Shown here: positions 14,114 to 49,200 of the stretch, piece after piece | Layout: every line of letters begins with the position of its first letter | Numbering within the stretch: position 1 is the stretch's first letter | Assembly (NCBI GenBank): GCA_973895155.1 | Contig: OZ316893.1 | Span: 15,592,645-15,656,644 of the forward strand | Length of the DNA: 64,000 bases | Direction of reading: 5' to 3' | From: Marsupella aquatica | Taxonomy: Eukaryota > Plantae > Marchantiophyta | Notes under the pieces: model-generated | Seen by the model: the letters and a program-made list of their open reading frames with translations, nothing else | Database searches by the model: none | Told to the model about the DNA's origin: nothing | Position numbers and translations under genes: made by a program

Positions 14114-14115
14114 AT

Positions 14116-14127
14116 TGGTATCAGAGC
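14116..14127 (+). promoter_or_regulatory. primer binding site (tRNA-iMet)
   Basis: TGGTATCAGAGC 2 nt after the 5' LTR, the canonical plant iMet PBS. Confidence 0.93.
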
Positions 14128-14647
14128 ATGCTTGGGAGGTGACGTGTGTTCGTGACGGGATTTCATTATGGTTTTTCCAGCGTTGAGTGTCGGTGGATTT
14201 CCCGGAGTTCCGTCGCATGGAACTTGGAGTTTATGGGCTCAACGGATAGATCGGGGCAAGAGCTTTCTAACGGTGTGAAGAAATCGCTGAACGGAGCTCG
14301 TGGTGCAGAGAGATCTAAGTTTTCGTCGTTCTGGATTTTGTGAAGAAAGTTGGCAATCGACTCGGAGGGAGAAGCGTCAAGTGTTTTGACTCAACGGAGA
14401 GATTGAGGCAAGACGATTGTTTTGAGTCCGGGATTGGCTCTTTGATGCAAAGAGGAAGGCTAAGCAAAATCAATTACCTTGTTGGATTGGTGACGGCACC
14501 AAGTGCAATTGATCAACATTCGTTATTGACAAGGGGCAGAGAGAGGAGCAGGAGGAAGAGCACGTGACACCGATACCATTACCGGTGCGGCGTGTGGTGG
14601 AGGAAGCAGTACTACTACCGGAGCTCACGGTAGTGCCAAAGAAGAAG

Positions 14648-15505
14648 ATGGGGACTTTCAAGCTTGGGGGACCCAAGTATGAAGTGACAAAGTATGATGG
14701 GCGCTCTGACTACTTGCTATGGGAGAAGCAGGTGAAGGGAGTGCTCTATGCGTCAGGGATGGGCCAACTGCTGAGCACTCGTGAAGACGATGTTGATGAG
14801 AAACAATGGGACCGCATGCAGGAGCAGGGAGTGTGGTGTGTTACACTCTATCTCATGCCTCCCATCATCAAGCAGTTGGGTGCACATAAGGATTGCATGT
14901 CCTTGTTTGCGGAATTGCAGAGCAAGTATCACCGCAAGGAGTTGTCAAACCGGCTCTACACTTCCTACAAACTCATGAGTTTCAGGATGAAGGAATCCGG
15001 CACAAAGTTGCAAGACCATGTGGATGCTTTCAACGACATGGTCGTTGACTTGGAAAACTTTGGGGAGACTTTGAATGATGAGACGAAGGCTCTGCAGCTT
15101 CTTAGTTCATTGCCTCCATCTTACCAGTCCCTATCACGAGTGTTGTTGCATCGTGATAGGGATACCATTTCATATAATGACGTGGTAAGTTCTCTGCTTA
15201 GTGATGATCTTCAGCAGAAGATGCACATCACATCACAGCCTTCATTATCTGGTGCTGCCCTCAATGTTAACCGTGGGAGGGGTATGTAGCGACCAACTGG
15301 GGACCGTAGAACCCAGTTTAGATCTAAATCCAGATCTAAGTCCAAGGGTAAATCCCCTCAGAGGAGGCAGGTGACATGTTGGAAGTGCAACCAAGTTGGA
15401 CACTTCAAGCGAGACTGTAAGGGAAAGGCAGCGGAAACTTCATCGGCAAATGTGGCTAGGGCTGATGGAGAAGCTGATTTACTCAATGATGAGTATGTTT
15501 TATGA
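14648..15505 (+). pseudogene. gag: copia gag (UBN2-like region + CCHC zinc knuckle), in-frame TAG at 15287-15289
   Basis: KYDGRSDYLLW...LLSSLPPSY; the frame continues past the TAG to CWKCNQVGHFKRDC, then reaches TGA at 15503-15505. Confidence 0.88.
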
Positions 15506-18500
15506 AGTCGGGGGTATGCCCTGTGCACGTCATCTAGGAGAGCAGATGATGTGTGGATTCTTGATTGTGCTTGCTCTTTTCATATTTGTTACATTCGTGA
15601 GTTTTTCAGTTCTTACTCTATTTCAAACGGTTCAGTTCTGATGGGAAATGATCACTCCTGTCAAATTGAGGGAATTGGGTCTGTGAAGATTCAAATGTTT
15701 GATGGCGCTGTGCGCACAGTGTCCGGAGTCAGGTATGTACCTGGCATGCGTAAGAATCTGATTTCACTCGGTGTGTTGGATTCAAATGGTCATCAATGGA
15801 GCGTTATTGATGGTGAACTTCAAGTCAGGTCGGGAGAGACAGTGATTTTGAAGGGGAGTAGACAAAAGAATTTGTATGTGTTACAGGGCAATACTGTATG
15901 TGGAGAGGCCAATGTAACCAAGTCTCACGAGGAGATGACTCAACTGTGGCATTCACGGCTAGGCCACATGAGTGAGAAGGGTTTGGCTATCTTACGGAAG
16001 AATGGACTCATTTCTGATTTGCAATCTTGTAAATTAGAGTTTTGTGAGCATTGCATTCTTGGAAAGCAGCATCGTCGTGCTTTTGGTGTTGGAACTCATC
16101 GTTCCAAAGCGGTTCTTGAGTACATACATAGTGACGTGTGGGGTCCATCCCCGACTCCCTCACACTCTGGAAAGTTGTACTATGTATCATTTATTGATGA
16201 TTACTCAAGATTTGTGTGGATTTATTTCATGACGCATAAGTCTGATGTCTTGTCCATTTTTAAGAAGTGGAAGGCCCAAGTGGAGAATCAGACTGGAAAC
16301 ACGATCAAGTGTTTGGATACAATGGTGAAGAGTTTGAGGTCAGACAACGGCGGGGAGTACACTTCAATGGAATTTGAAGAGTACTGTTCAGAACAGGGGA
16401 TAACTCGCCATCTCACCACAGTTTATACTCCGCAGCAGAATGGTGTCGCTGAGAGGCTCAATCGGACACTATTGGAGCGGTCACGGAGTATGTTGAGCCA
16501 ATCAGGTTTACCACAAGAATTTTGGGCAGAAGCTATCAATACCGCAGCTTATTTGGTAAATCTTTCTCCTTCTAGTGCTATCAATTTCAAAATGCCGTTT
16601 GAGATGCGCTATAAGCGGCAAGCAGACTATCATGGCTTGGTAGTTTTTGGAAGTGATGCATATGCTCTCACACCGAAGCAGAATAGGACCAAGTTGGATC
16701 CTACCTCCAAGAAATGTGTTTTTCTTGGGTACCAGAGTGGTGTGAAAGCCTATAGGCTCTGGGATCCTATTGCCTGTAAGCTCGTTGTCAGTAGGGATGT
16801 TTCCTTCAATGAATCCAGATTATTGAAGGAGGGGGAGAATACTCAGGTCTCCCGTACTGACAAAGGAAAATCTCCTATCCCGGATCTCATTGAGGGGGAG
16901 ATTGGTTATGAGGTGCATGACCGAAGAGAAGGAGTTACTCCAATTATGGAGCTGGTTCCTGTGCCAGAGGAACCAGAGGAGTTTGTTGATGCTGGTGAGC
17001 AGCAAGTGGATGTTGTTGAGCTTCAAATTGTACCAGCACACGCAGATCAACCGAAGTCATCGGCTAGAAGAACATCTGGTCGCACTGTACGTGCTCCACC
17101 AAGGTATGGACAGTGGGTTGATTCATCTCAACTGCAAGAAAATGATTTTGCAACTGATGATGAGGGTGATGCGTTAATTTTGGAAGAAGGGGAACCTTCT
17201 TCATTTCATGAGGCAAGTGCTTCAAAGGAGAAGCAGAAGTGGACTGCAGCAATGCAAACGGAGATGCAGTCACTAAAGGACAACAAAACTTGGGAGCTTG
17301 TTAAGCTGCCTAAGGGTCAGCAAGTGGTGGACAGCAAGTGGATTTACAAGCTGAAGGATAATTCCATAGGAGGTGGATCGAAGGTCTACAAGGCTAGGTT
17401 GGTAGCAAAGGGATTCACACAAGAGAAAGGTGTGGATTACAATGAGGTCTTCTCACCAGTTGCTAAGTACTCTACAATACGACTATTGTGTGTACTTGTT
17501 GTAATGTTTGGTCTGCTGCTAGATCAGATGGATGTTGTCACAGCTTTCCTCTATGGCACATTGGAAGAGGTGATCTTCATGAGACAACCGCTAGGTTTTG
17601 TGAAGAGAGGACAGGAGGAATTGGTTTGCAGATTGCTGAAATCCTTGTATGGTTGAAGCAGTCACCAAGACAGTGGAACAAGCGGTTTGACGATTGGATT
17701 CGGTCACAAGGTTTTCACAGAAGTGTATTTGACCCTTGTGTGTATTTGAAATCGGTAAAGAATATTGTATTTGGGTTCATTGTTTTAATACTTTATGTGG
17801 ATGATATGCTAATTGCAGCCAAGGATAGGTCTGAGATTGTTAAGCTCAAGGTACTGCTTAGTGCAGAGTTTAAGATGAAGGACTTAGGGCCAGCTAAGAG
17901 GATTTTGGGTATGGAGATCACTAGGGACTTGGAGGCTGGCAAGCTATGGTTGACGCAGAGCAGTTATGCGAGGAAGGTAATTGCAAGATTCAACATGGGG
18001 AATAGCAAGCCAGTAAGTACCCCGTTGGCTCCACACTTCAAGTTATCATCAGCGTTCTGTCCTACGGATGACACAGAGAAGGGGTTGATGTCAAAGGTTC
18101 CGTATGACAAGGCAGTGGGGAGTCTCATGTATTTGATGACTTGCACTAGACCTGATCTTGCCATGGCTATGGGCAAGGTGAGCAGGTACATGTCGAATCC
18201 AGGGAAGGTACACTGGGAAGCAGTGAAGTGGATTATCAGGTACTTGAAGGGTACTGTGGATCATGGTCTTTTATTTGATGCGAATGCAAAGAATGCTAAA
18301 TCATTGATTGGCTATGTTGATTCTGACTATGGACAAGATTTGGACCGAAGGAGATCAACAACAGGATACATGTTCACACTTGGCGGTGGATGCATAAGTT
18401 GGAGGTCTACTTTGCAGAAGTGTATTGCTCAGTCTACTACAGAAGCGGAGTATGTTGCAGCTGCGGAAGCAGCAAAGGAAGCGATTTGGTTGGATAGACT

Positions 18501-18777
18501 TATCACTGAAATGGGATTGCCACAGGGGAATGTGAAGCTCCATTGTGATAGTCAAAGTGCGCTCCACCTTGCTGTGAACCAGGTGATGGACAGCAGAGTG
18601 AAGCACATTGACGTTAGGTACCATTTTATCAGGCAGGCTGTGTCTGATAATTTGTTTGAGCTAGTCAAGATTGATGGTAAACTCAACCCGGCTGACGCAT
18701 TTACCAAAGTGATTCCTTTGGAGAGTTTCTCTAGACACCGTGACGTATTGCAGGTTTTGCAATTGCATCACAAGTAG
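15506..18777 (+). pseudogene. pol: copia pol (protease, integrase, RT, RNase H) with 1-nt frameshift near 17651-17656
   Basis: WILDCACSFH (PR), HSRLGH/CEHC, HSDVWGP, LRSDNGGEY, NGVAER (IN), YKARLVAKG, LYG/LKQSPR split by the frameshift, YVDDMLI (RT), GYVDSDY and KHIDVRYHFIR (RNase H). Confidence 0.95.
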
Positions 18778-18949
18778 AGTTTTCTTAACATTCATTGTAA
18801 TTACTGATATATGCTCTTCCTCATTCCTATGTATTAGGCTACGGCTTAGTTCTGGTTTGCTCTAGTTAGAGAGGGAAACCGGTTTGGTTTTTGTCCAGAA
18901 CTTCCCGCTGAGGGATCATATACATTGGCAGTATTACTCTCCCCTAGAC

Positions 18950-18967
18950 CAGAGTCAAGGGGAAGAT
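18950..18967 (+). promoter_or_regulatory. polypurine tract
   Basis: Purine-rich agagtcaaggggaagat immediately before the 3' LTR. Confidence 0.75.
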
Positions 18968-19352
18968 TGTTGGGTATTTACTCTTACGTCTAGGTTAGGT
19001 ATGACGTGGTTGGTACAACAACGTGGGTTGGTACAACTATGTGGTTAGGTACAACTACGTGATTAGGTACAACTATGTGGTTAGGTACAACTAAGTTGCA
19101 CACTATATCATAAGAGGCATGTGTGCTTGGAGAGGAAGGACCAAGGCTCATTGTTATGGAGCCACTTGAGAGATAGGGAGAGCTTACACTGTGGAGACTC
19201 GGTATAGCCGACGGGCTTAGAGTTCAGTAAAGCTCTCTTGTGTGTTCCCGTGGACGTAGCCTCAAGGAGGTGAACCACGTATCTCTTGTGTCGACTATTG
19301 TGCGTTGGATGGTTCATGGGCTTGCCGTTGCGATCGTCGTCTATGCTCAACA
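18968..19352 (+). repeat. 3' LTR (385 bp; five 18-bp units)
   Basis: Matches the 5' LTR minus 36 bp; followed by the AACAA TSD. Confidence 0.95.
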
Positions 19353-21905: not shown

Positions 21906-22001
21906 TTATGAATCCTCATCGTCATTGTCGTCATCGTCATCGACCGATAACCAGGTTGGTGGTGGTGATGCAGGATAGCCAAATGTCTCATTAGGATCCA
22001 T
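21906..22001 (-). CDS. small ORF B3, 31 aa MDPNETFGYPASPPPTWLSVDDDDDNDDEDS
   Basis: ATG 22001 to TAA 21906; paralog of A3. Confidence 0.7.
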   Translation of the reverse strand: MDPNETFGYPASPPPTWLSVDDDDDNDDEDS

Positions 22002-22099: not shown

Positions 22100-22213
22100 C
22101 TAAATTCCCGTTGACATAAACCCGAGGTGTCTATTGACGGCCAGCATTGTCCTGGCCAACCAACCATGGTGTGATGTGGTGTTCGGGAATCCGAACTGCT
22201 CATTGGGATCCAT
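22100..22213 (-). CDS. small ORF B2, 37 aa MDPNEQFGFPNTTSHHGWLARTMLAVNRHLGFMSTGI (1-nt deletion relative to A2)
   Basis: ATG 22213; ACATCACACCATGG versus ACATCACCACCGTGG in A2. The ancestral stop would be at 22131-22133. Confidence 0.5.
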   Translation of the reverse strand: MDPNEQFGFPNTTSHHGWLARTMLAVNRHLGFMSTGI

Positions 22214-22303: not shown

Positions 22304-22384
22304 CTAGGCTTCCTCGTCAGATGAACAAGACAACCACGGTGGACTGTCGGTATTGGTGTATCCGAATTTCTCGCTGGGATCCAT
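22304..22384 (-). CDS. small ORF B1, 26 aa MDPSEKFGYTNTDSPPWLSCSSDEEA
   Basis: ATG 22384 to TAG 22304; paralog of A1. Confidence 0.7.
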   Translation of the reverse strand: MDPSEKFGYTNTDSPPWLSCSSDEEA

Positions 22385-22975
22385 TCACCAAAACTCTCGG
22401 AAATATTTCGTGAGCCTACTGCTTGAGCCCTCTCTCACGATGAATGCATGAATCACAAGCCACTCAGATTCACTGCTCGAGTGCCAATCGAACGGAAAGG
22501 ATGCCAACGCACGGTTGACTTGTGAGAAGTAATGTCAAATTAGCGATCATGTGGAGCACACTATGAGAGAAGAAGATATGGGATGCAAAAACTTCACAGC
22601 TAAAGTGTGAGAGAGACGACGAAGACTAGAATGCATTCAGTGGAGAGCAGTGGGTTTCTTTTATGCACTCCTCTGGCGATCGAGTACTCCCCAAACATTG
22701 GTTCGACTTCACTCTCGACGTCACTCGCTGAAGCTGTTGTGTCCGGCTGGCGGTTTTCCTCAGATTAGTCACTGGAAAGTCGGGCAGGGCCGGGCGAACT
22801 TCAGAGGAGGTCCAAAATTCGACTCCAGATCGGTAAACTTTCATCAGTCCCAGTGGAAAACCCGGGAATCTTTACCCATGTGGATCATTCTAGTTGCTCA
22901 TGATACTTTATCAAAATGCCATGTCACCGCCGTAATAAGGTCGGACGGACTGTTCCGTTCAGGGCACTGAATCAT

Positions 22976-23994: not shown

Positions 23995-24759
23995 GAACTT
24001 AAAGTCCTCATGGACACACAGGTTTGCTAGGATTTACCCTGATGGACACAACCATGTGACATTGTAAGAAGAATTTCCAATGACAACTAACAAACAGATC
24101 ACCCGTCTTTAATTAACGGAAGGAAACCTTACTTTAGACATTCAAAGAGACGAGTCCCTGGAACAGGATTAACTCTACCTCGGGAACCCTCCATGGAGTC
24201 CAAGAAATTTAAATAAAATGTCAGCTACTGTCAAAAGATTGCCTCCAGGGAGTCCAAGAAATTTAAACAAACTCTCCCACAAACAGATGCAAAGGGAAAA
24301 AGGCACTACACAAGAGGGGATAAGAAAGTTGAATTAAGTTAAGTCTCTAATTGAGAGGGAGCCAGGTCAGTAGTGTGTAAGGTGATGGCCTGAAAACTAA
24401 AGAGATGGGTGCAAAAAGGGGGGAACTCAGGGTGCTCCTTCCGGTAGGCTGTGAGGGAGTCCCGAGGTACAGTTAATGTTGTTCCAGGGACTCGTCTCTT
24501 TGAATCTTTAGACCTTATGGTTGAGTTAGTCGGTCACCGCATCCTTGCACGGAGGAAAAAATGGACAGAATACAGGAAGAATCAACCGAATACTGACTGG
24601 TCCCAGTCACATACCTCCTTACAGGTCACTTTGGGATTACAACCAAAAAGTGTGTTACAAGAGTAAAAAATGAAATCCAGTTTGTGTCCATCGGGTTGTG
24701 TGTGTCCATTCAATCAGGCTTTCTTCCAAACATGTGTGTCCATGGGGGCTTTAAGTTCA
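23995..24759. mobile_element. Mutator-type (MULE) MITE, ~765 bp
   Basis: TIRs gaacttaaagtcctcatggacacacaggtttg / caaacatgtgtgtccatgggggctttaagttc; 9-bp TSD GTATCTCAA at 23986-23994 and 24760-24768. Confidence 0.85.
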
Positions 24760-28668: not shown

Positions 28669-30378
28669 CCTCGAATAAATGCATGAAACTTTCTATTATA
28701 CTTGTCAATAAATACTTCTAACATATATGTTGTATTGATTAATGTATCTGTATTCTTATAGATAAAAATGTCTTTATGTATTTGTTTTTTAGTGACAAAT
28801 AATCTGTACTTTATAGAGAAAAATGTCCTTATGTATTTGTGTTTTAGTGACAAATAATTTGCACTTACAGACAATGCATTTTTTGGTGTATTCATAAAAT
28901 ATTCTACTATATTATTGAGAAACTACACTATCACCCTTTGCAATTACTCACGGAATGCAGTTATTTTCGTTACACTTATTCATTGTACAATTGTAGTACC
29001 ATGGAATTTACAAGTTCTACGATAGCAATAACTACGGTAAAAGTCAGGGGGAAGTAGTCAGCAAGTCAAAATCTCGTGCGCACTCCTGCAGTCCTGAATC
29101 GTCAGTACCTCCATCAACGCGGCAGTAGAGGATGATGCTTCCCACTTCCCAGACCACTAGAGTACAGACCAGTCCTGGCAGCGAACAATAGCCAGGAGCC
29201 AGTCTAATCAACGGTTGACAGTGAGTAGAACGTACTCTCAGGGCTGCATCATGGTACTGTACCGTGTTTGACCTCCCATGGAATTGTTTCAGGCCAAATG
29301 TTTCAGCACATGAGTGCGTGATTGGTACAATATTCTGTTAGAGCATTGCTTCACTAGGAGCATTTCCATTTCACGGGCGTTGATTACTTAATTCGCTTGT
29401 AAGCAACGGGGAACGGGTTATTGTCAAGTGAACCTAACTTCAATATGGATTGGTCAGGACCTTTACGTCGGGGAAAATTACCTCGTTTGTGTAACCCTTC
29501 CGCTTCAGCTTACAATAATAAAGTTGGCGTGCCTCGTTTGCGACGAAGTCAAATGCGTTTCAAAAGAGGATACATTCTGCAGAAGAATAGTGACTCCTAC
29601 TGGGGACGCGGCTACAATGTAAAAACGCTGATTCGGAAGTGTCACATAATTTTCTATACCGATGCCCGATGCCTCCCAAGCGGTCATTGGAGTCAACGAG
29701 GAGGATACCTTAAGGAGTGCCCTTAGTAGCAAGACTCGAAAGACTTTGCTGAAGTACTCCTCAGGGACTGTCAGGTACTTTGTGGCTACACAAATAATAC
29801 CTGTATATACACAAGCTGGCTGCTGGCAGCCACGCGACTTAGGCACAACCCCGCCCGAAGAGCGGGCCCTAGCGTGAGGCTTGTAGCCCAAGCAAGGCTT
29901 GTAGCTCAAGTAAGAAGCTTTGCGAAGAATACGTGTGGGAATTCATGTCGATATAGCCCCAACAATACCACCATTAACTATATATTTGCAGCACTTTGAA
30001 TCGAACTGTATTGATTCGAGTCTTGAGGCGTCTTAGCAGCTCAGTACGTATTCACGCTGAACGAAGGAGGTAGCAGCAGTGAGTTGTGTTTGCATGTGTG
30101 GGAGTGTAGAGTGTAGCTTGGTCAGTTCGTAACGCACAATCTGATCGCTGCACGCTGCTATTACTGGAATTCGATCGTCGGATGAATTGCGCGCAGAGCT
30201 CTAACTTGTACATCCGACTGTACTTTGCGGCATTTTTAACGTGCTTCCTTCGCTTGCAGCTGTGGTCCACGGCATCGATCACTGTTGGGACAGTGGTAGT
30301 TCAGCTTCCAGCCAAAAGTGGGAGAGCTATCGCCGGTGAGGAAAGGCCAACCACCGGTAGCTTTCGTCAGTGACATCG

Positions 30379-30570
30379 ATGGATCTAGGGGAACAGTTTA
30401 GTGGATACGGAGCTCCAGCCGGAGCTCCAGCCCCTGCTTGGCTCGGAGTACCTCACCTGAAGCCGAAATTCGTGCCTGGCACCGGTTCGCGCAGCACTAA
30501 TACTGGGTCAGAGACCAGTAGCCAGCCACCTCGGGACGAGCCTCGGGAGACACAGGATCACAGTAGATAG
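30379..30570 (+). CDS. small ORF, 63 aa, MDLGEQFSGYGAPAGAPAPAWLG..., member of the MDPNE-FGY-PPWL family
   Basis: First ATG of track ORF 30370..30570; family motif at the N-terminus; TATA-like ctatatattt at ~29978. Confidence 0.55.
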   Translation: MDLGEQFSGYGAPAGAPAPAWLGVPHLKPKFVPGTGSRSTNTGSETSSQPPRDEPRETQDHSR

Positions 30571-32544
30571 GACATCGAGCTGTTCATCGACGTCAGTACT
30601 ATACTCATGAACATCTCTTTGGTCCTCGCCCCTTTCTCCTCGTTCATCTACATTAAATGGCAGTTATATTTTCGATCTACATGCTTCGAACTTGGCAAAC
30701 GCTGTTTTACACGGAGAAGAACGGAGAAGAACTATCGTGGTCGTGACAAGCTCACCAGCACCTTTCTACTATTTTCATGCTTGACACCAGTTTGTTGTTA
30801 CTCGTATCATCTACGGCAACCACTGTCGAAAGGGATTCTGTTCCTCAGTCACGTTCAGTGGGACTCATTCCATCTTCCCAATGGTTGACTCCTCAGACGC
30901 CTTCTCCAAGAGCAATGCAATCTTGCATTCATGACGAACAAGTGCCCAGGAAGGATGTGAAAACAACCGTAAAATGCTTCAGAATGCATTGAGACCGCGC
31001 CATTGCATGGTTTCATGCTATCAATCCTTAGAGTAGTACAAGAGCACCGTACTCGACATTTCGTAGATACGTCCCCGCCCGGCACATTGTCAGGAAGAAG
31101 CTCTTAGGTATATTTGGAAATTCGAGCTAGTACGCTCACGCCTGGAAGTTCAGTCAGTAGAACAATCATTTAGATTCGTCGACCATTACTTCATACAATT
31201 CTTCCTAATGAGATTCCTCCGGTGAATCTCAATCATTCAATACATCATGTGATTCTGCCATTCTGTTACAGTCAATTGCCTCTCAATTGGACGAATGTCG
31301 ATCCATGCTTCTTGGCTTCCTCTGCTCTTGAGCAGTATTGTATATTTCATTAGGAGACTATAGGCCTGGATCCATCACATTCGTTAGGGCAGATCCAGTT
31401 GTTGGCATTTATGGTTTTGCACTCCTTGATGAATGACGTGATTAAATTGGCCTCGAATCTATTAGTCTTCCTAACCTTATCTTCAGATTACAGATGGGTC
31501 GGCGACAGCCATGCTTCAACGGCAATATTCGCATTGCTCTTGGTTTAATTTACGAGTCCCCGTCTATATATGCTATCTGCGAACCATTCGGCACAGTGCA
31601 TGACATCCCGTAGTTCATCAAGAGAGTGATAAGACTTCCTTCCATCCCTACATGAAGACCATTTAACAAAGTTACGTACGAATAGTGGAGAGATTGTGCG
31701 AGGGATGAAATTTGCGTACGAATAGTTGAGATAGTAGAATGTCACAATGCATCCTTAATCAAATTTTGGGCTCATATAACGAACGGATCTTTGATAGGCA
31801 TTTTGGGCTCATATAGAACATTTACTATCAAAGGCAACCTAAGTCTCAGCATGAAGCCGTAATGTTCCAAATGTTACAGTACAGGCCGCTTTCTCTGGTC
31901 TTCAGAGGTGAAACATTGAATGCAGATGTCGGGCTTTTGCCAAGATAAGGAGAGACGGATAGACGGCGGCATAATCTTCCGACCAGAGCGGAAAGTTTGA
32001 AACAATATACTGTCCTGGATGGGATGTTTCATGTTGTTGTCTGGACTTGACTTGCGTTGTTTCCAACGGTCGCCAAGTTCGGACAACAGCACAAAATACG
32101 AATTTATGGGCTGATCGATTTGGCACTGCTTTTAATTCGTCATCAAGAGTTGTGTTACAATTTAGGTGTCCATATAGGAAGTCGGCTGAAGTTAATCTGA
32201 ACATGAACACATCATAAACCCAATTAGATTAAGACATTATATACTCTGCATGTTAGATTTGCTGAAGCAAGTGCACCTCGATTGGAAGTTTGATAGTCGA
32301 TCTGGGAAAATTGATTCAATTACGTCATCGAAAATCCTCTACCAAGGACGCGGTAACGGAAAGCATGCTTGAATGGGGACCGCCTACTATATAAAAATAT
32401 TAAACGTAATTGCCTATCTTGCTTTCAATGCTCATTGGCTCCCATACACAACTAGTAACAATTCTCAGAATTCTTTTTGCCTCAGCAATATATCCAACAA
32501 AGCTAGGATCCGATCCAGAAATCGTCCACTAGTAGAAAACAATG

Positions 32545-33260: not shown

Positions 33261-33610
33261 CGAAGTATTCAATGATTTGGAGAAATTCAAATTTAAGTGA
33301 TCATGATAGATAAAACTTGATGTCAATCAAAAATCATACATTACAAAACCATTCAATAGAGTTGCTAAATGAAAACTTAAAGAAACATTCGATATATATC
33401 ACAAATCCAATTGATATTCATACAAGATACCTTCATAAGTCTCACGGTAAATATTGAACTCAATGCAAATTTATGAAACAAAATTACATTGACATCAATA
33501 ATATTAGATTGTCAATTGTTACAACCTGACATACCAATCACTCTGCATGTTTATAGAAAAACAGAGTTGTCATTCTATCATGTCTATTGTTTCTTGATAG
33601 AGTGCTATTT

Positions 33611-36600
33611 CTATTGCTTCTTAAGCAATCTAGAGTTCCATAGGGCATTCATCCCTTTCACATCAGATAATTTAGACTGGTTCTCCCCTGAATTGGCAAA
33701 TGGCAATGCCACATCTACAAACACTTCAATCACACGCACTCGCAAGAAAGGGCTTTCAAAATCTGCACAATGAAACTTATCTTCTCCTGGCAGCCCTGTC
33801 ACCTCACCTTCTGCCACTATCATGGAATTGTCCACAACGCTCTTCATCTTCACCAAATCTCCTCTTGCAAACTGTGAACAACACATTTTGTTAAAAATGC
33901 AATAAACAGAAATTGAAAGATAGAAGAACACTCAAATCAAACACACATTTACCTTTGCAACGGGGTTAGGAGACTGCATTGGTTTCTTCTGTGCAGGTGA
34001 TGCATTTGCTGAGGATCCTTTCTTCCTTTTCTTCTTTCCCTTTCTAGTTGATGGAGTGTCATCCTGTTCACTTGGAATGGGAGTTTCTTTTGGCAACTCA
34101 GATGATTCTGGGGTTACATCTGGTGTCAACTGAGTCGACTTATCCTCTGGCAACTGAAAGGCATCTGAAATGGCTTCTTTGGGCAACTTAGATGGCAAAA
34201 GGTTCACTTCCAATTCAGTTTGCTTTAGAGTACTGTTAGCTGTGTCAGTTGGTCTTCCCTGCGATACAGGAGGCTCCCCTAAAGATGCTGTCATAAAACA
34301 CACACAAAAGAAATGCATAAACAAACATGTATACACCAGCAACATATAATCACACTAAAAACATGCAAGAACATTATAAACATGCAATGACATATACACA
34401 TCACAATAATTACATTGAATGGACAGTGTATACATGATAGAGAATTTTACCTTCATTATCGCCTGAAAAAGTAAGAGATCGCTTTCTACTACCTTGTTTG
34501 GTAGTTGTAGTCAACTTACTGTGACTAGGCACAACTGTTGGAACTTGTGCATTACTGGGGTGATGTGCCATCCACGTAGTCATCATGTTTGTCAACTCCC
34601 TCATAGTGCCTTTCAACTCAGCGACATCCAATTTCACAGCCCCAATGGCAGTGATCTCTTCTTTTGAATGTGGGGTCTGTAAATGAACCACAAACCAACA
34701 CAACAGTCTCACTGTCAAACTTACAAACGACACAACACTGGCTCTGTCAAATGGAGAATGATGTACAAATCAAATTGGTATGACAATACTCACAGCTGAT
34801 CCATGTCTGTTTCCTTGCCCCAGTAAGCTAGCACTTTTACCCTCCCCACTTGCCAATGATGGGCTCACCTTTGCTCCCACAAAACTACCAGTCTGACCTT
34901 CTGCACTTGCCAATGATGGGCTCATTGTCACCTTTGGCAATGAACCCTGACTACCATGGTTTTCTTTCAGGTCAGATATACCTGGGCTTGATCCTCTCTT
35001 CTGCTTCTGTTCAAACACACAATGAATGAGAAATCATAGAGTTTGTTTTCATCAAGATTCACAAACAAGACAGAATTGATAGTGAAAATGATAGACAATT
35101 TACCATTCTCTTTGCTGCTGCAGCATGCCCTCCCCTTCCAAAGTGAGAGGTATCTTGCACTCGTGCTCTTTTATCAGTCATCTGTTTACTCAAAGATATC
35201 AATGCTGGACTGGTAAAATGAGATACCAAAGCTGCCCATTTCTTTGGATCAACACCAGATGGCCCAGGTTTGGTTGGATCCTCATTGCAAACTTTCTTCC
35301 AATAAACATGCATTTTATGGCGCTCTCTCTTCAATATGCCACGACAATGACTCTGGAATTTGGTGTTAATAAATTCCCCACCCACATACTCCCACTCAGC
35401 TGCCATGTTATTCCACACTGTGGTTGTATGAACTTGTGGATGATCAGTCCATTTTGGCTTTGATACATCAAAGACTCTGAGTACGTTGCCACGAAGTTCC
35501 TCCAGCCAGTATTGTTTGTTGCCATCAGAATCATCAATATCATTGTCATAAATCTGCATTTCACAGACAATGTCAGATCATAACTCTGGAATTTATGCAG
35601 AGTCCAGGTTTTATACACACAACAACAGAGAGGATCAGATTTGTCTAAATCTACAAACAAGTACAATACTCACTTTAATGTGTTTGGGCACCTCTCCGCA
35701 ATCCCTTCGTTGTTTGGCAGTATTATCAAACTGCTTCTTAGCATGCCTTCGTTCCCTGCGCATCTCAGAGGCCCCTCCTGCAATGCACACACATGCATTC
35801 AATCAAAAAATATGTACATGATTGAAAAGTTGAGAAAATGTACTTGCATATGCATGACGAGCAGATTGTGTATTACCTGAAGATCCTCTGGAATGTAGTA
35901 CATCAGATTGACCTGATCTGCCTTCAGATGCTGATGGAACCACTAAACAAACACACAACACCAAAGCACTTCAATTAATTTCATTTCCAAGTAGAATATC
36001 AACTTCCAAACACACCTGAAAAGTAGAACAGTACAATCCACTCACTTTCATATAAGAGTCCAGTGTCTGGGTCTTTCCAACATCTCACTAGCCCACCTCC
36101 ACCAGGCCCAGACTTCTTAGGACCACGATTTTGTTTCTGTACCTACATCATGGACAACGTAAGCATATCAACATATAATTTGAAAAAGGGACAAGGATCC
36201 CTTCCTATTAGGATGATGAAGTTCAAGCATTACCTGTTGTGCACTCTCTGGTTCTGACCCTCCAATGTCAGAATCCTCAGTGTCATACTCAGAAGGAGAA
36301 CCATAGCCATCATCACCAAACTCTGCCATGTTCACCTTGGTAACTTCTGATAGTCTAGAGCTCCTCCTCTTTGGCAATGTTTCAGTTGAAGTACCTTTCA
36401 CCAAAGCAGGCTTTCCTCTCTCTCGTTGTACATGTGTGGTTGGGCCTCTAAGGAACAAAGCAATCATCAACATACACCAATGCAGATCAAACATACATGC
36501 AAAATGAATCTACAACACCGTAACACTAGTACTTATGTACAGGATCCATACTAGTATGAGACCAATCTGGAATATGAAAACAGAACATGAACCTGACAAC

Positions 36601-36790
36601 TCCATCTACTGAATCAAATTTGCAATAGACATATCAAAACACACGTCAGCTTGCAGTCTGGCCCCAGTCCTAGATCACGCATAATTCTGACATTATGCTC
36701 TATGTTCCGATTTCGGGCCTCCTCATAAGGATTCACAGAATGTGACAACCCTTGCAATCTTCCTTTCACAGGCTGCATTCACCAACTGCA
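33611..36790 (-). CDS. CACTA ORF2 / TnpA-like protein (multi-exon; Ptta/En/Spm Transposase_24-like region, C-terminal Tnp1-like domain); boundaries approximate
   Basis: GT-AG-bounded exons include ~35555-35103 (KWAALVSHFTS...SKQMTDKRARV...HFGRGG), ~35008-34791, ~34677-34450, ~34290-33952 and ~33873-33611 (VAEGEV...H...RVRV...VALPF...KLSDVKGMNALW, stop at 33611). The 5' exons are uncertain. Confidence 0.72.
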
Positions 36791-36876
36791 CAAATGGGTA
36801 AACCATTAGTCTGATTTCATAAATAGTCCATACATGTAGTCCATCTATGGACTTCACACACCTAGCTAAAACCTAT

Positions 36877-39800
36877 TCACTGCTTAGGCCTGCCCTTTCT
36901 TGCAGATCCCTCTGCATCTCTGCCTCTTTTGGGACCAGTACTTGGTCCTGGATTTTCTCTGGACCTACAGGCCTTAGCCAATTCGATGTGTAATTTGGCA
37001 TTGTTTTCCATTGTAGCATGGAAATCAACGTCTGTGTAATCACCTAACACCCTTGTGGACCTGGATTCTTTGTGGAGGATTGTTCTCCATGCTATCCCCT
37101 TCTCATTGGGGTGGAAGAAAACCTGCTCCACTTGCTTTGGGAAAACGTAATCCATTTTCTTGGACACACCCAGTTCTCTATGGAAATTCACCTGCCAAAG
37201 ACCAGACTTGGTATACCTCATACTGGCAGAGGATTTAGGAGTCCATGATGGATCTGCCCATTTCCCTTTGAAAAGAATCACCTCTTTCCTCAAGCTGCCA
37301 TAATTCAGTACCAAGATATCTGTCAAGGCCCCTACATACTGTACAGATTCTTCTATGGTTGCACCAGACCTGTCCACTCGCTTCTCAGTGAATGTAGAAG
37401 CCATCCCAGAATCAAAAGTGCTAAAAGCACCAGAATCACAATCACTCAAACACCCCAAGGATGGAATAGTCCTCCAATGGTGCCCATAGGCTCTACATGC
37501 CCTATACAGTCGTGCCTTCAAACTAGGTGGTGTGGAGTATGCAGATAGTAATGACCGCTCAGACTCTTTCTCAAAATTATGGGTATTGACTAATGTTTGA
37601 AACCATTCCCTGAAAGGTGGCAATTCTTGGCAGTCTACGGGAAATTCCACTGGTTTTCTTCGATTGGCAGGCTTCCTCATCCACTCCTTCCGGAAATCCA
37701 CTCTTTGTTTGGTAACAGTCTCATTGGTAGCATCATATATCCTGCATGGCAACAACAACACTGAAGACATTAGTGCACGATCCACCATGAATATACAAAC
37801 ACAATGGGGCAACATAATTATGATCCATATGCCTAAGGATAGGAGAGTTTCTAGGGTTTATGTACCTGTACCATGGAGCCACTGTCTCTTCATTCTCTAA
37901 TATATAATGATGCATGGCCATCATTTCAGACCAATCCAAAGTTATCGCCTTTGCAGCCCCTTCCAAAACAATGCCTGCAACGCCAGCATCCTCCTCCAAC
38001 TCCCAGGTTCATTTTCCCTCTCCCTTTGCATCAATCATGTATTCAGAAAGAAATCCCAAAGACTCATCTAATACATAGCCTTCAGCCATAGAAGCCTCTG
38101 GACGTGCCTTGTTTCGTACATAACCCTTCAATACCTTCAGGTTCCTCTCTATTGGGTACATCCATCTGCCTGTAACTGGGCCACACAAGTCTAATTCCTC
38201 CACTAGGTGAATCATTAAATGGGTCATGACATCAAAGAAGCTTGGTGGAAAATGGATTTCCAAAATGCAGAGAGTGAATGCAACATCCATCATCAAATTC
38301 TCATACATTGAAGGGTCCCACACCTTCGTACAGATCTGGCGATAGATATTGCTCACCCCAGCTATGGCCAAGCAAACCCCTTCATCAAGTAATCCCATTG
38401 TTGCCAGAGGGAGAATCTGTTGCATGAGTTGGTGGAAATCATGTGATTTCAACCCAGAGAGTTTCTTGGATTTTGTAACACACTTTGCCAAAGAACTTGA
38501 AAAACCAGTGGGCCCTTTCAAGGTCAATAAAACCTCCAAGAACCTTGTTCTTTCCTTCTTGCTCAGGCAATATGGGGCTGGGGGCATCAACAATTTGTCA
38601 TCCTTACGCTTGGGAGCTGGATTGGGTACAAGCCATAGGTGTTGGCGCACCTGTAAGAGCTTCATGTCTTCTCTCACAGAAGGAGTGTCCTTGGTCCCAA
38701 TGATAGTGTGCACAATGTTGTGTGCAAGATTCTTCTCACAGTGCATGGGATCTAGACAATGGTTAATGAGTAGTTTCTGCAATGGACACACAATTCAGAA
38801 ATTAGGGCATTGAATACAACTTTTGGCATCACTGGGCAGTAGTTTGTGCAGTGGACACAATTCAGAAATTAGTGCATTGAATACAACAATTACAAAATCT
38901 GGGCTACAGGAAGTATATGAAGAGAATATATTTCAAAGTCATATGAAGAGATTGCAGAAATTCATTGTAGTAGTATGGAGTCTTACATTCCAATAGGGCA
39001 ACTTGTACAGACCAGTAGCCCTCTTCACTCCATGCACCTTTATGGGGCATTTCTCATCCTCAACCTTGGTTCCTCCCTTCTTCAAATATTCTGTTGTCTC
39101 GTCTCCCCACTTCTTTCTATCAGAGCTTGTCATTCTACACGGTGCAGGTCGACTCTCAATTGCACCATCAAAGTATTGTGCACTATCTGGTCTACTAAAA
39201 AGATGCCTTGCTGCTAACCATCGACGGTGGCCACTGTACTCTAATTTCTGCAAGTGCTTAGAACCACGTGCCACACATTCTGGCCCACAGATGACACATC
39301 CTTTGTATCCAGAGTGTTGTTGTCCAGATATTAAACCATATGCAGGGTAATCATTGATTGTCCACAATAGCACAGCCCTAAGGTTGAAGTGTTGAGACAA
39401 TCCTGGGCGTGGCAATTTGTCAAAGCAGGGCACTCCTTTCTTCCACAACAGCTCCAACTCCTCATAGAATGGGCCCAATATTATGTCTAGCTATTCCTCT
39501 GTTACTAAATCAGGTCCTGGAATCAGCATAGCTAGCATGACAAAGAACTTCTTGGTGGTAAGCCAAGGAGGTAAATTGTAATTCAACAACAGTATTGGCC
39601 AGGTAGACCAAGCTGTGGAATTATTCCCAAAGGGATTCACCCCATCAAGTGCCAACCCAAATCGCACATTCCTTGGTTCAGCTGCAAATTCCCGATCAAT
39701 ATTTGTATCCACATGCTTCCAAGCCTTTGAATCTGCTGCGTGCCGAACCATGTTGTCTGTGCTTCTATTCTCATGATGCCAAGTCATGAGTTTAGATGTA

Positions 39801-40846
39801 CCAGCAGTGGCATACAATCTCTTCAACCTGGGAATTATAGGGAAATACCGCACTACCTTCCTTGCCTGTAATGAATTCCCCACTCTCTTCATCTTGGGCT
39901 GCTGACACACTGAACAGTTTTCTAACTTGGCATTCTCACCCCTAAAGAGCATACAACCTTTCTCACAGACAGGGATTCTCTCATAATCCAAGCCAAGCTT
40001 TCTCAATAGCTGCTTTGCAGCATATAAGTTCTTGGGCAGATTATGCTCTGTAGGCATACCATGCTCCCCCATCAAAGACAACAATGCATTCACTCCTTTG
40101 TTTGAGAATCCATGGCCATGACAGATGTTCAGCAGAAGCAACATGAATGACACAACATCTATTTTGCTGCCTGGGAACAAAGGTTGCATTGCTGCATCTA
40201 AAGATAACTGTGCAGGATCAGTCTCCACAGGAGTTTTGGAGGTTTCAAGGGGGTTTACAGGATGGGCACCTCCTTCACTCTCATCATCCCCAAGTACAAA
40301 ATCCAAGTCAAAACGGTCCTGATCATCTAGCTCATGCTCAGGGGATTCTTCACTGGTTCTCAGCAACGTTTCTTCCAGTAGAGCCCTGATATGTTCTTCG
40401 ACATCTATAGTTGGATGTTCTTGAACATCCACAGTTGGATACTTTGGAACATCTACAAATAAATGTTCTTCAACATCTACAGTTGGCTGTTGTGCACAGG
40501 TTGCCTGCTGAAGGTTTGCTACCCTCAATGCCTCAGGGCCATGTTGTGACATGTAGTCAGCACCCCACTCTTCATCAGAAGAGTCCTGTCCCTCTCCCAC
40601 CCACACTCGACATGCAGGGTACCGACCATGTTTAATAAGGTGCAGTCTAGCAGTATTCCGATTAGTCCTATAATTCTCTTTGCAATTCACACAAGGGCAG
40701 TACATCTTATGGTCCCCACTCTTGTGGCAGGCCTTTTGTTCTCGAACCCACAAAGCATCATCACGATGTTGTACTCTAGCTGGATGGAAGAGCGGCAACT
40801 TTGGAGTTCTACCCACACCTAACGTATTCTGTGGCAATTGTGCCAT
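36877..40846 (-). pseudogene. CACTA TnpD-like transposase (Transposase_21/Tnp2, DUF4218- and DUF4216-like regions) with two in-frame stops
   Basis: CPCVNC, YFPIIPRLKRL, HAADSKAW, LALDGVNPF, YNLPPW, WTINDYPAYG, DPMHCEKN, GLKSHDFH, FPPSFFDVMTHL, RWMYPIER. TAG at 39491-39493 and TGA at 38009-38011 are both followed by in-frame homologous sequence. Introns at ~38987-38781 and ~37866-37743. Confidence 0.93.
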
Positions 40847-41443
40847 GCTAGCTTGATTGAAATTGTATTCAAACTATGATTTTCAAACTGAATCAGAGTG
40901 ACATGCATACAAAATTGGGCCTACCGTCACAGTTGTACAACCGATGCCAACCACAGTCCAATTGCTCAAACCCACAGAGCCCAGTTTCTCAAATCCACTG
41001 TAGTAGGGCACCTTCTCCTTGCATACAAATAGAGCATCACATACAGTGTCATCAGAATGATACTATGAACGTAAATCTCTGTGCCTTCATCATTTCCAGT
41101 ATTTGTTTGCCTAATAGGAATGTGAGTAGACAGGTCTGGAATAAGTAACGTTTGTGACACCAGTGACAAATTTACAAGTGAAGTTTAGACATCAATATGG
41201 AGGAAAGTCACACTCAAAGTACATGCTTGAAAATCAGAATCCTACCCTGGAAAAGATAATAAAGTTGATTTCTCAAAATTAATTGCCTCAATCCGCAATG
41301 CACTGTCGTAGAGTGTGTATACATGAGGAGTTCATCAAACTGCATATAAATAGTCCACATGTTTTAGCACTCTGAAAATTGTTTAAGTCCACGTGAAACC
41401 ATGAAAAAGCTCTATCTCAAGTTTGTGTTCGATCCAGCCTCAA

Positions 41444-42103
41444 TCAAATCCAAGATATGTGGCTCCTAGCAGGAGTGCCTAGTGTAGGGTCAATGTCATG
41501 GTCAGGACAGTAAAACATCCCCTTCTTGGGCTGCCCATGCGCTGAGTGATCCCAAATTGTTCGATCATGGGCAAATCCCCTCTGCTGGATAAACAGCAAG
41601 CAGTCCTTGTGCCATGCCTTAGGACACCTCATGCACTGAACCAAAAAGCCATTAGCCCCATCATTGGGCCCCTGTCCACAAGTAAGACAAATATGGAGTC
41701 CACATGATGTTGTGCTAGGAACCAAACACTGCCGACAGTAAAACCGGGCACAGAGAGGGTTTGGACATTTTCTTACCTCTTCACCAATTTTTCCAGACAC
41801 ATGACACTTAAAGCAAGAATGTTCATCATTCTTGCAATCAACACAAAGCCATTCTCCAACATGGCCATCAGCCAGGGATATAGTTGGGCATAGCCATTGC
41901 TGACCCAAAGGACAGGAAACATTCTTATGGAAATGTCGGTGGCAAGGCCCATCACAAACAATGAGATCCCCTCCCTCATCACAAATCGCACATACATGTG
42001 GACTATTCTGGTTAATCTCAATGTCTGAATATAAGGACAATTGAGGTGCTTGAGAGGATTCACCTCTGCAACGATTCATGGCCTTCTGCTTATTGCGAGC
42101 CAT
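41444..42103 (-). CDS. CACTA cargo: stand-alone EDM2-like multi-PHD zinc-finger protein (219 aa) with H3-tail-like N-terminus
   Basis: accATGG start at 42103 just after a tgcag acceptor. CAICDEGGDLIVCDGPCHRHFH...WLCVDC..HSCFKC...CARFYC...CGLHICLTC...QCMRCPKAWHKDCL...WD...FYCPDHDIDPTLGTPARSHI parallels, from recall, the PHD cluster and following YCxxHEID..L.TPxRxH motif of plant EDM2. Confidence 0.85.
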   Translation of the reverse strand: MARNKQKAMNRCRGESSQAPQLSLYSDIEINQNSPHVCAICDEGGDLIVCDGPCHRHFHKNVSCPLGQQWLCPTISLADGHVGEWLCVDCKNDEHSCFKCHVSGKIGEEVRKCPNPLCARFYCRQCLVPSTTSCGLHICLTCGQGPNDGANGFLVQCMRCPKAWHKDCLLFIQQRGFAHDRTIWDHSAHGQPKKGMFYCPDHDIDPTLGTPARSHISWI

Positions 42104-45100
42104 GGTCCTGCACACTCAGACCTACATCAGATTGTGAAACACGAAGGAATAACAGGGTGCAGCATGACACAAAGGAATGAGGGTGCAGCATAAAATATGA
42201 CATGTAACCACAAGGGTGCAGCATAAACCAATGCTTTATGGATGGCAAAGCATTTAGGGCTGAGCAGAGCCCTAACCTTGGCCTATGATTGGAAGCAATC
42301 ACAAATATTGCAACCTGTATGCCTTCGCTTGCTGTACAGCAGTGCTCGATCACTCACCCTGCCTTTTTAAAATCTGTAAGGGCAACACAGAACAAATAGC
42401 AATTGAGTTTCAGCAAAGCATTCATTTGGCTCTCAGGTTTTAAAATGGACAAACAAACACAACGATGTGCACAACAAAGCACAGAGAGCAACAAAACTCC
42501 AGCAAACTGGGACTCAGGCAAGAGACACGAATTTTAGCAGCAAAATCAAATCAAGATAATTCGGACCTGTAAGTTCAACATGCAGTGCTCACTCACCCTG
42601 CCCTTTTTTAAATCTGTAAAAACCAAGTTTTATTGCGTGCCTTCTACATCTTAAGCTGCTGCACACATCTGTTACAGAACCATAAGTTGCTTTACTCTCA
42701 ACAAGCTAGCTGCTGGTCCACCCACTTTTTCAAACTGCTGGTCCACCCACTTTTTCAAAAGCTGCACCGTACTCTATCTTCGTGCAGTCGTGGCATTACC
42801 GGGCTGCTGTCAGAGACCCTTACAAAGAATTTAAAATTGACCAAGCTGATTTTAGTTTAGTTTCGTCTAGTTTGCAGACCAAAGGAAATAATGTGGCTGT
42901 ATTCATGGAGTTGTATTCATTGCTGTGTATGGATGTTGTGTGAACGTCAGACAGTTAGCTGTAAATTACCATAGTTGAAGAGCAAGGCTTGTACAAAAGC
43001 CACTGAGGAATTCTCTGAGGTGGCACAGCAGTTGGCAAACCATACACAAAACTCTGAAACTTTTTGGCAACAGAATTCTACAGAGTCGTTGCCGGAATCC
43101 AGTGAGGATTCACCATACATGCCTGCACTTCTCTTCAATAAAAAAAAGAGAAAAGAAAAGGGCTATGATACAGAGGGATGTCAAAAGAAGAGTAAGGAAA
43201 CCAATTGATTGAGGAACACAGACAGACTAAGGAAAACATCATACAATGGAAAAATAAGGACTACATTGTAATAATAAGAGATCAAGCTCACCTTGCACCA
43301 CAGAGATTGTCACGAGTCACCTCGCAGTTCCTCGCAGCTTAGGTCCAGGATGACATTTCAATATGGAGGAAAGGAGTTTACTCATTTAAAATAGAGAAGG
43401 AGTGGCATCTACAGGGACTTTGGGAGCACACTCAAAAGGTTCGCGATACATCAGGTTATCTTTCTAGGTCAGACACTGCCAATAGAATTTTGAACACAAC
43501 AAACACAACAAACACTGCCAGATATAGAATTTTGAACACAAGGGTACGGCATCCAGATTTGCCTAAACTCAATCAACTTAATAGCATATTTTTATGTTCA
43601 ATTAGGCAGCACTAAATAGAACAGCCTTTCACGCAGTCAGAATAATTGGCAATAATTGCCAGACGACAACAAGACAACAAACTGAGCTGAACATAGCAGA
43701 CAAAACAAACTGCACTCAATAGTAGACTAATACGGCAAGTAGCAATCAGAAATCAACAGCAGACAGACAGAGGACAACTCGGTCAAAACTCGGGCACTTG
43801 ATTTAGTTGTGGTAAATAGGAGAAAGCTAAGAAACAGAGAGAGAAAAAACCATTTCTTAGCAATTGGATCTGTCTGCGATCTCCGCTGCCTGATTACAAT
43901 CAAGAAGATTTTGCCAAAACAAACGATAAAGCTGAGGTGGAGTCATTCAAAGCCCAAGTCTTGATACTTCGTCAGAAGCATGATCAGTGGAGCGCTCAGC
44001 TACGGAGGCATGGGGTTTTGGAGGACGAAAGGCTTTCGCGGGCAGTGCAGGCAGCCGTTCAGGTTTGGGAAGATTTTGCCAAAACAAACAATAAAGCTTG
44101 AAGATAGTTAAATTTCTTAGGTCTCTGATAGTTAATGGAAGGTCGCAGTGGAGCCAGCATGGGACAGGGAAGGAAATGCAGGCACTTGTGATGCAATAGG
44201 CTACAGAGGGCGAGAAGGTGGACAACCAATTGAAACTCAACAAACTCAAAGAACATGTAGCGAATGGCAATAGAATAGAAGATCAGAGAATATGTAGCAA
44301 ATGGAGAGGGATAGATAGAGAAAAAACATAAGCAGAGAGCTCTGGCACACAGCAACACAGGTCCCAACACAGCACATTGCAAGTCCCAGGCTGGGGTGGA
44401 GCCGGAAGTGGAGAGCACAGAGCAACCAGGCAAATCACAACATGGGCGCCAATGGGAATAAGGTCATACCTCTTTGCAGCTCTTGACCGACCAACAGCTC
44501 CTCACCGACCAGCGCTGCTGCAACTCCTCCCTGATGTAACCTCTTGCAGCTCCCGTAGCTCCTCCCGCAGCTCCGAAGCTCCTCCCGCAGCTCTGCAACT
44601 CCTCCAACAGCTCCGCAGCTCCCGATGTAATACCTCCCGTAGCTGCCACAGCTCCTTCACGAACAGTGAGACTAGTTGCTGTCACTGCCTCCGATCCACG
44701 AGCTTCCACTGTTTTTGCCTTCCACAATGATAGGGGTCCCCAACGCGCGAATGCCTTCCCTTCCCTCCTGCAACTCAAACATGTGCTCGGAAGAGTGTCA
44801 AAACTCCTCCCCTCCCGCAACTCCAACCTGTGCTCCTGCAGGTCTAAATGGTGAGACCAACGCGCGAATGCCTTCCCTTCCCTCCCGCAACTCCAATCTG
44901 TGCTCCCGGGGCAAATGTGCTCGGAAGAGTGTCGCAGCTCATCCCCTCCCGCAAATCCCACCTATGCTCCCAGGGCAAATGTGCTCGCCTTCGTTCCCTG
45001 CGCTTGGTGGAATGGAGCACAAAGCTGCGCAGCCCTAAGCCCTTGCAATGTGCACACAAAGGCATGCCAAGACATAAGCACATATCGCGTTGCCCTCTCG

Positions 45101-46139
45101 ATGTTTGTTGAGGAAAAAGGGCTCCTGTTGGTACGCAAGACCACTTGAGCGGGATAAACCTAATTGCTGGACCCCTAAACCCCGTAAAGGTAAGGTATTT
45201 TGTTGGATGGGGATGGTGGATATTGTGGGTCATTAATTAGGGTTATTTTTTGAGACTAGTTAATAACAATGTAACAAAACCCCCCCATAAGGCCCATAGA
45301 TAATACCAACTAAATAAGTTAATAACAAGGTCGGGACGCCCCCATAAGGCCCTAGGGAAGGCACTGAAGGTAAATAGCTCATAATGTCGCGACACCCCCA
45401 TAAGGTCATGGCTGTTTGTGTAGGTGCCCATAACCCGCCCCTCATTTAAACCTCCTTAATGGGAGGTGAGGGTGTTGTGGATTACATTAGTGTAATTAAC
45501 TATGTACCGGCCATGTTTTTTGGGTGATAGGTTATGTCTGCAAAAAGGACCATATGCATGAACACAATTTTGGACTACCTTATTAGTCTCACCATGACTA
45601 TATGACCTCCAATATGCCAACATTAATGGCTTCCAAGATGACAGCGTGAGTGACCCCACTTTTAGTCATTCATATTGAAGCACTATTTAATTCACAAATG
45701 ACCCAATGAACTCCCTTGTACCTCCAAAGAGAACCCCCCAATAGCCTTTGTAAGGACCACATTTCCAATCATTTGGAACTTCTTACCTGTAGTATGACAA
45801 CCAAAATGACCCTAATTTGAGGTGTTTTCATTAATGACACACCATGAGGGACCTGTCTAATGACCACAAATATGACTATAAAAATGACCCTATATGTAGT
45901 CATTGGCATTAATGACACACCATTATGTGAAAATGACCCAATGAAGAGTACATTACCTCTCGGAGTGCCCCCTTACAATTCATTTGGAATTTAATAGAAT
46001 ATATCCAAATCCAAATATCGGCACAAACATGACATAGTTATATAGAAGGACATAGTCTTCCACTAGTATTGCATTATATATCTCTTGGAGAGACAAAAAC
46101 AATTTTTGTTTGCCGTTTGGATAGGACAGTATGCATGCA

Positions 46140-49100: not shown

Positions 49101-49200
49101 GGTGCATCACGCCTTAAGTAAATGCAAGACATGTGTTCAAATTGCTAATGCCGCAACCAGTGGGAGGACAATGATGAGTATTGTGTCCCGCATTTAGTGG
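46140..49200. repeat. ~578 bp tandem array (5 full units plus a partial one) inside the CACTA right arm
   Basis: ttggcaaatcactccaaag recurs at ~46155, 46740, 47313, 47894, 48472 and 49050. The central units are near-identical, hence the repeated MDNDEY ORFs. Confidence 0.93.

Follow-up and report, generated by a model that had tools for sequence, protein, structure and literature searches.

A likely translated member of an apparently undescribed short plant peptide family, with tandem and dispersed relatives in a 64-kb window

The window, that is, the whole 64-kb stretch of DNA that was analyzed, contains on its plus strand a short ORF, F, whose 63 codons carry the motif M-D-x-x-E-Q-F / G-Y / P-x-W-L, as a first-pass annotation had claimed. 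Inside its core, a tandem repeat was called by TRF at 30408-30432 (period 12, 100%). The locus is laid out as follows:

30379-30570, plus strand: unit F, an ORF of 63 aa, with a leader to Phe7, a variable uncharged core, Trp21-Leu22, and a 41-aa tail
30409-30420 and 30421-30432, plus strand: a 12-bp unit, equal to four codons, present twice within the F core, from TRF
29979-29984, plus strand: TATA-like box TATATA of F, a consensus match only
30079-30259, plus strand: predicted 181-nt 5'-UTR intron of F, with a GTGAGT donor, CTAAC at 30201, a pyrimidine tract, and a CAG acceptor

The TATA-like box, which had been placed about 400 nt upstream of F, lies exactly 400 nt before its ATG, the chance of finding TATATA or TATAAA in a 150-nt stretch being about 0.11. 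The two upstream ATGs, at 30094 and 30182, both fall inside the predicted intron, so that splicing would leave 30379 as the first AUG. An alternative donor is present at 30044, the start context of F is good, and the depletion of ATGs in its exonic leader is not significant (P 0.21). Overall, the TATA word, the canonical predicted intron, and the start context suggest a gene-like anatomy for F.

Related ORFs are found in two cassettes, A and B, which are parts of a segmental duplication and stand 18.5 kb apart. Each cassette is an array of four minus-strand units spaced 171-214 nt from one another, namely the three recognized earlier and a degenerate fourth:

3833-3916, minus strand: A1, intact, 27 aa; its ATG is the first to follow the TATA-like element of array A
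3619-3702, minus strand: A2, intact, 27 aa; its ATG is the array's second
3434-3523, minus strand: A3, intact, 29 aa, or 55 aa if translation began at an in-frame ATG at 3601
3262-3318, minus strand: A4, degenerate; register kept (Tyr9, Pro10, Trp17), stop at codon 6
22304-22384, minus strand: B1, intact, 26 aa
22100-22213, minus strand: B2, frame lost through a 1-nt deletion at codon 15
21906-22001, minus strand: B3, intact, 31 aa
21739-21795, minus strand: B4, leader degenerate; Tyr9-Pro10 and Trp17 kept, frame continuing to 21442 (117 aa)

With a DNA profile, A4 scores 12.0, which 1 of 100 shuffled windows reached, and B4 scores 14.8 against 12.5 for the best of 100 shuffled windows. Substitutions between A and B amount to 3-8% in the ORFs (codons 11-14 of unit 1 excluded), 13-17% in the spacers and downstream, and 30% in the leader. 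A second haplotype of array A differs by 15 substitutions in all; of the 13 that are listed, the 130-nt spacer has 11 and the 127 nt of ORF have 2. In both comparisons, conservation is higher in the ORFs than in the spacers.

Before A2, array A holds a single ATG in 588 nt, where 8.5 would be expected (P 0.002), its leader and first spacer being ATG-poor, and this scarcity is what a scanned polycistronic mRNA would need; the leader of array B, with three ATGs, does not share it. Leaky scanning or reinitiation might allow the units of each four-unit array to be translated from a single mRNA. Spacings of 214 and 179 nt in array A, together with a stop after every unit, speak against the alternative of one spliced ORF with several cores. 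Upstream of the TATA-like elements, a block of about 40 nt (4340-4400 and 22750-22795, minus strand) is strongly conserved between A and B and constitutes a candidate cis-element. Upstream of cassette B also lie nested inverted repeats (23995-24758, arms of 32 and 51 nt) that are likely MITE-type insertions.

A further ORF of the window is probably a second dispersed member:

60071-60223, plus strand: unit G, 50 aa, preceded by TATATA (-321) and CTAAC (-152)

G scores 17.8 with a Met-anchored profile, against a null maximum of 12.6, and 17.5 with a two-block model, a value equalled in 2 of 25 shuffled windows; these scores and its anatomy make it a probable member. Its poly-Asn tail is encoded by an (AAC)10 microsatellite at 60161-60190. 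The ORF at 57981-58235 on the minus strand (84 aa, Trp9, Pro15, Trp17, and a tail made of an 11-bp repeat), which faces away from G, was rejected as a family member, its score of 3.9 being within background.

Regarding the relationship of F to the cassettes, it had been proposed that F is an older paralog conserved only at the peptide level. Indeed, 9-10 of 13 anchor residues are identical between F and each intact cassette unit, when 4-6 of the 7-8 degenerate codons that they share differ synonymously, and a blastn search (word size 7) of 29300-31800 against the window returned no match to either cassette, in line with the earlier remark that the flanks of F are unlike A and B. Together with a natural haplotype that lacks 12 bp, described below, these observations support the older-paralog view. 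The accompanying claim that deleting one copy of the 12-bp repeat returns Trp-Leu to positions 17-18, as in the cassettes, is confirmed with two corrections: the position does match five of the six cassette ORFs, but the sixth (22100-22213) is frameshifted and owes its own Trp-Leu, at 18-19, to another frame. Moreover, the register is restored in count only, because an extra Ser8 puts Gly-Tyr at 9-10 and the linker is one residue shorter, so that what F keeps without one repeat copy is the distance from Phe7 to Trp and not the position of Gly-Tyr.

The profile check suggested along with these claims did not single F out when run as a local search with the six cassette peptides, one of which is the frameshifted B2: F reached 7.2 bits, inside the random background (among 56,767 shuffled sORFs, 102 scored at least 6 bits and 20 at least 8), and two unrelated sORFs of the window scored 7.5 and 7.2. 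This score is one of the arguments for seeing in F a chance look-alike or a decayed pseudogene, as are its flanks devoid of DNA similarity. Against such a reading, a Met-anchored profile with gaps allowed gives F 21.5 as it stands and 23.2 without one repeat copy, far above the maximum of 12.6 among 66,031 shuffled sORFs. A two-block model built on the five intact units (any start, six frames) gives F 27.1, when the best values of 25 shuffled windows have a median of 12.6; the highest of these windows reached 24.0, which again leaves some room for chance. Since both the anchored and the two-block models were made after F had been seen, independent evidence on F was needed.

Such evidence comes from natural haplotypes. 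Five public runs from three studies match the stretch or part of it, with no RNA run among those listed, and four of them were aligned (X2, X3, X4, and X5). In three of these four (X3, X4, and X5, from two studies), a haplotype lacks exactly 12 bases at 30408, which means that the edit made on paper in the first-pass annotation occurs in nature; X2 has no coverage over the F ORF. Judging from the family register, the F allele present in the window has likely acquired the 12-bp repeat recently. One contig of X3 spans 29906-30562 and differs by 24 substitutions, 17 upstream and 7 in the F ORF. Five of the latter seven, a small number to carry a selection test, are synonymous, for an expected share of 0.25-0.28 (P 0.013-0.022). 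Codons 1-28 contain a single, synonymous change between haplotypes, and the unshared tail has 4 synonymous substitutions out of 6. Read in the other sense frames of the locus, 0 of 7 and 1 of 7 changes would be synonymous; the antisense mirror frame shows 5 of 7, as expected, but contains stops and has no ATG. Substitutions are as dense inside the ORF (7/184) as upstream (17/473), so that constraint is visible only in the kind of change. Among the indels listed, the sole one in the F ORF is in frame, when 1 of the 11 in the flanks is a multiple of three, and the donor, branch word, and acceptor of the predicted intron are intact among the haplotype differences listed.

On this basis, F is likely a translated gene, and we consider it very likely that it is a real coding member of this family of short plant peptides, which lack a signal sequence and appear undescribed. 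The chance or pseudogene reading, to which the small number of substitutions behind the selection test also lends something, appears improbable in view of the anchored score, of the natural haplotype in the family register with its in-frame indel and synonymous bias, and of the TATA, intron signals, and first-AUG layout. The further proposal that the window is a gene cluster of this family is a fair description, with two four-unit arrays, F, and probably G at 60071, Pfam finding otherwise only transposon proteins; this judgment covers the 64-kb window.

The same runs offer some side observations. In 29700-31500 and 3230-3960, X3 and X4 carry a haplotype identical to the window plus a second one diverged by about 4-6%, and at the F locus X5 has diverged pieces only; a hybrid or polyploid origin is possible. 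X3 and X4 also contain a copy resembling A2 yet different from both A2 and B2 (3645-3734), with synonymous changes at codons 4, 8, and 9 and a change at Pro10; this copy may represent either a further paralog or an intact equivalent of B2.

The seven intact peptides share a layout made of an acidic leader to Phe7, a near-uncharged stretch of 8-13 residues rich in Gly, Pro, Ser, and Thr, a Trp-Leu pair, and a free tail. In the leader, Met1 and Phe7 are found in all seven, and Asp2 and Glu5 in six. The gap from Phe7 to Trp is exactly 9 residues in the five intact cassette units and in the shorter F allele, and 8 in G. Charged residues make up 2 of 66 positions in the cores versus 53 of 166 in leaders and tails, a contrast inflated by borders drawn after seeing the alignment and by the relatedness of the units. 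Within these borders, the cores begin with Gly in 5/7 and end with Pro or Ala in 5/7 and Thr in 2/7. Past Trp-Leu, the tails run for 8-41 residues to different ends, conservation there being limited to sister copies like A1/B1. The peptides have no hydrophobic signal stretch (top 9-residue hydropathy 0.99), and no fold is predicted for them (pTM 0.19).

Several of these traits recall the stand-alone precursors of orbitides (segetalins, citrus SCAmpPs, annomuricatins), which, as far as the sources cited here describe them, are likewise short signal-less ORFs in clustered multigene families, with a conserved leader and an uncharged Gly/Pro-rich core that varies in sequence and length and tends to be Gly-first and Pro/Ala-last. 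Orbitide cores are indeed described as 5-16 uncharged, Gly/Pro-rich residues, often Gly-first (PMC11253845), and those of Annona as ending in Pro or Ala (10.1101/647552). Among close copies of the present family, changes concentrate in codons 10-14, where the length variant of F also falls; between A1 and B1, 7 of the 12 nt in codons 11-14 differ versus 2 of the 57 nt around them, a pattern like the localized core divergence between paralogs that PMC4409773 describes for citrus SCAmpPs. Such hypervariability is seen in one of the three paralog pairs, A3/B3 showing one changed core codon and A2/B2 a frameshift.

These resemblances lead us to propose, as our preferred though tentative reading, which we would not call probable, that F encodes an orbitide-like precursor from which a small peptide, cyclized head to tail, is released. 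Transcription would start from the TATA box, the 5'-UTR intron would be spliced out, and cytosolic translation would begin at 30379 as the first AUG. A protease might then cut after the invariant Phe7, and a cyclase might cut before Trp-Leu (after Pro, Thr, or Ala) and join the ends, both of these steps being less secure than the preceding ones. The ring released would be uncharged, Gly/Pro-rich, and 8-9 residues long, or 13 for the F allele of the window, and diversification of its variable core could serve a defence-type role. Among the frames of the window that were scanned (46 of 60 long and 101 shorter ones), neither a cyclase nor a protease family was found; according to PMC11253845, plant pathways are rarely clustered.

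Differences from orbitides have to be set against this reading. The follower is conserved for two residues only (Trp-Leu), when the accounts of orbitide precursors in PMC11253845, 10.1101/647552, and PMC12366393 describe conserved followers; the residue before the core is Phe rather than the Glu of Annona and of the citrus WSE site; and repeats are separate ORFs, each with its own start and stop, rather than several cores per ORF. In size and in the lack of a signal peptide, the family does agree with orbitide precursors, which measure about 30-50 aa: the cassette units have 26-31, G has 50, and F, with 63, is above the range. Sequence similarity to orbitides was not found. Because the follower is not conserved, hypervariability concerns one pair in three, and both the product and the cyclase are only predicted, we do not file the family as orbitide. 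The fuller proposal of a new plant ribosomal cyclic-peptide class, combining polycistronic arrays (three to four ORFs per mRNA) with dispersed genes, Phe and Trp-Leu borders, a putative cyclase, and an allele-dependent ring size, seems to us rather doubtful.

A close rival, held with only slightly more reserve than a cyclic F product, is that the peptides act unprocessed, as microproteins whose Phe-Gly-Tyr and Pro-x-Trp-Leu dock into a partner, with a spacer between them and the tail free. The invariant anchor residues are indeed aromatic or hydrophobic and stand at nearly constant distances from Met1; the Tyr and Pro that are invariant within the core would suit a binding motif equally well; the tails vary freely in length and sequence; and disorder is predicted. 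In addition, the synonymous share in the unshared tail of F (4 of 6 substitutions) implies that the tail may matter in an intact protein. However, the A1/B1 spacer diverges more than the neutral flanks with their 13-17% (binomial P 7e-4, uncorrected), charge is nearly excluded from the spacer, the rapid birth and death of copies (B2, A4, and B4) would suit a family that diversifies its products, and there is no candidate for the partner.

Precedents for such microproteins exist, to the extent that they are described in 10.1101/351635 and PMC13670568. Like the IRON MAN (IMA) peptides of the former source, the present ones are diverse, unannotated, and held together by one short bipartite motif, and Asp-rich stretches occur in A1, A3, B1, and B3. 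The motif is N-terminal here and C-terminal in IMA, and the IMA C-terminal motif G-D-D-D-D-x(1,3)-D-x-A-P-A-A, as given in 10.1101/351635, is absent from all seven intact peptides. As in the insect tarsal-less/mille-pattes genes, in the account of PMC13670568, related sORFs stand in tandem, here perhaps on one transcript, but in another kingdom and with units of 26-31 aa that have variable cores.

A third possibility is that the sORFs are regulatory upstream ORFs, in which Pro-Pro-Trp or poly-Pro would stall ribosomes and thereby control a downstream main ORF, as in AZIN1 (on the account of PMC9082881). Pro-Pro-Trp is present in A1, A2, B1, and G, Pro-Pro-Pro in A3 and B3, and the sORFs are in tandem near the 5' end. 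We nonetheless regard this possibility as very unlikely, because a conserved main ORF is missing from the adjoining DNA, although splicing to a distant exon is conceivable: past their last units, the two arrays are set apart by indels of 1, 6, 11, 6, 12, and 1 nt, some of which break the frame, and the ORF that follows F (30607-30888) lacks 181 nt in the other haplotype. Furthermore, F is without Pro-Pro-Trp, and Pfam has no match downstream.

Returning to the cyclic-peptide reading, fungal MSDIN precursors are also short, with a fixed-length leader counted from Met1 and a variable core. Their leaders require Pro at the end, whereas position 10 is Thr in A1 and B1, and the window carries plant-type transposons.

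The family appears undescribed in the literature and collections searched. When 5.8 billion proteins were searched with a profile, neither the 14 length-matched candidates nor the 6,043 longer proteins gave a match at E ≤ 10. The sole match among 1.84 billion representatives, a 3,555-aa bacterial Ig-repeat protein that sums weak Pro-x-Trp-Leu matches, was discarded. A degenerate DNA pattern, which recovered 6 of the 6 expected sites in the window, matched elsewhere 5 viral and 15 metagenome sequences, all out of frame or unrelated. In the ESM Atlas, the best score was 0.78 for F and there was no usable match for G, Pfam has no match for the family peptides, and PDB returned nothing significant, all these collections being poor in tiny eukaryotic ORFs and their blanks correspondingly weak. 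A resemblance to the N-terminal motif of light-harvesting complex proteins was likewise dismissed, its E-value going from 0.045 with the full alignment to 6.5 once trimmed, with no match for single peptides or in Pfam. Six motif words did not occur in the literature searched, and topic searches found no paper on the family, supplements and figures, which may hold precursor alignments, being outside these searches.

In plants, sORF genes and lineage-specific peptides have already been described, as have, occasionally, transcripts with two sORFs (PMC12744755 and PMC5699049), and PMC13670568 describes arrays of related sORFs in insects; what is unusual here is that same-strand arrays occur together with dispersed single genes. 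Genes so small escape annotation. If the peptides were cyclized, they would form a new plant RiPP family whose masses are directly predictable and whose cores are multiplied in an unusual manner, as separate ORFs on one mRNA. Such a result would matter more if the source were a non-seed plant, given that, according to the chemotaxonomy section of PMC11253845, known plant RiPPs are limited to vascular plants and none of the five classes comes from true ferns. If the peptides were motif microproteins, related sORFs arrayed on a polycistronic transcript would be a rare case among plants. Under both readings, the F alleles with and without four core residues are a ready-made natural test.

As for the genomic setting, the Pfam scan covered 46 of the 60 long frames (the other 14 fall within repeats or share sequence with transposon frames) and 101 shorter ones, and matched no gene in the window beyond transposon proteins; Rfam gave 0 matches in the window. 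Reading the DNA as that of a plant is based on its copia and CACTA families. A full-length copia LTR element on the plus strand (13693-19352) has LTRs that are 99% identical and a 5-bp target-site duplication, AACAA, which indicates a young insertion between cassette copies A and B. On the minus strand, a CACTA/En-Spm element (33600-42200) encodes Transposase_21, DUF4218, and DUF4216, and NSD-type PHD fingers are found in the adjoining ORF 41444-42103. Further along, an array of about six palindrome-containing 580-bp units (45700-49220) is followed by another of about eight 83-bp units (49308-49984).
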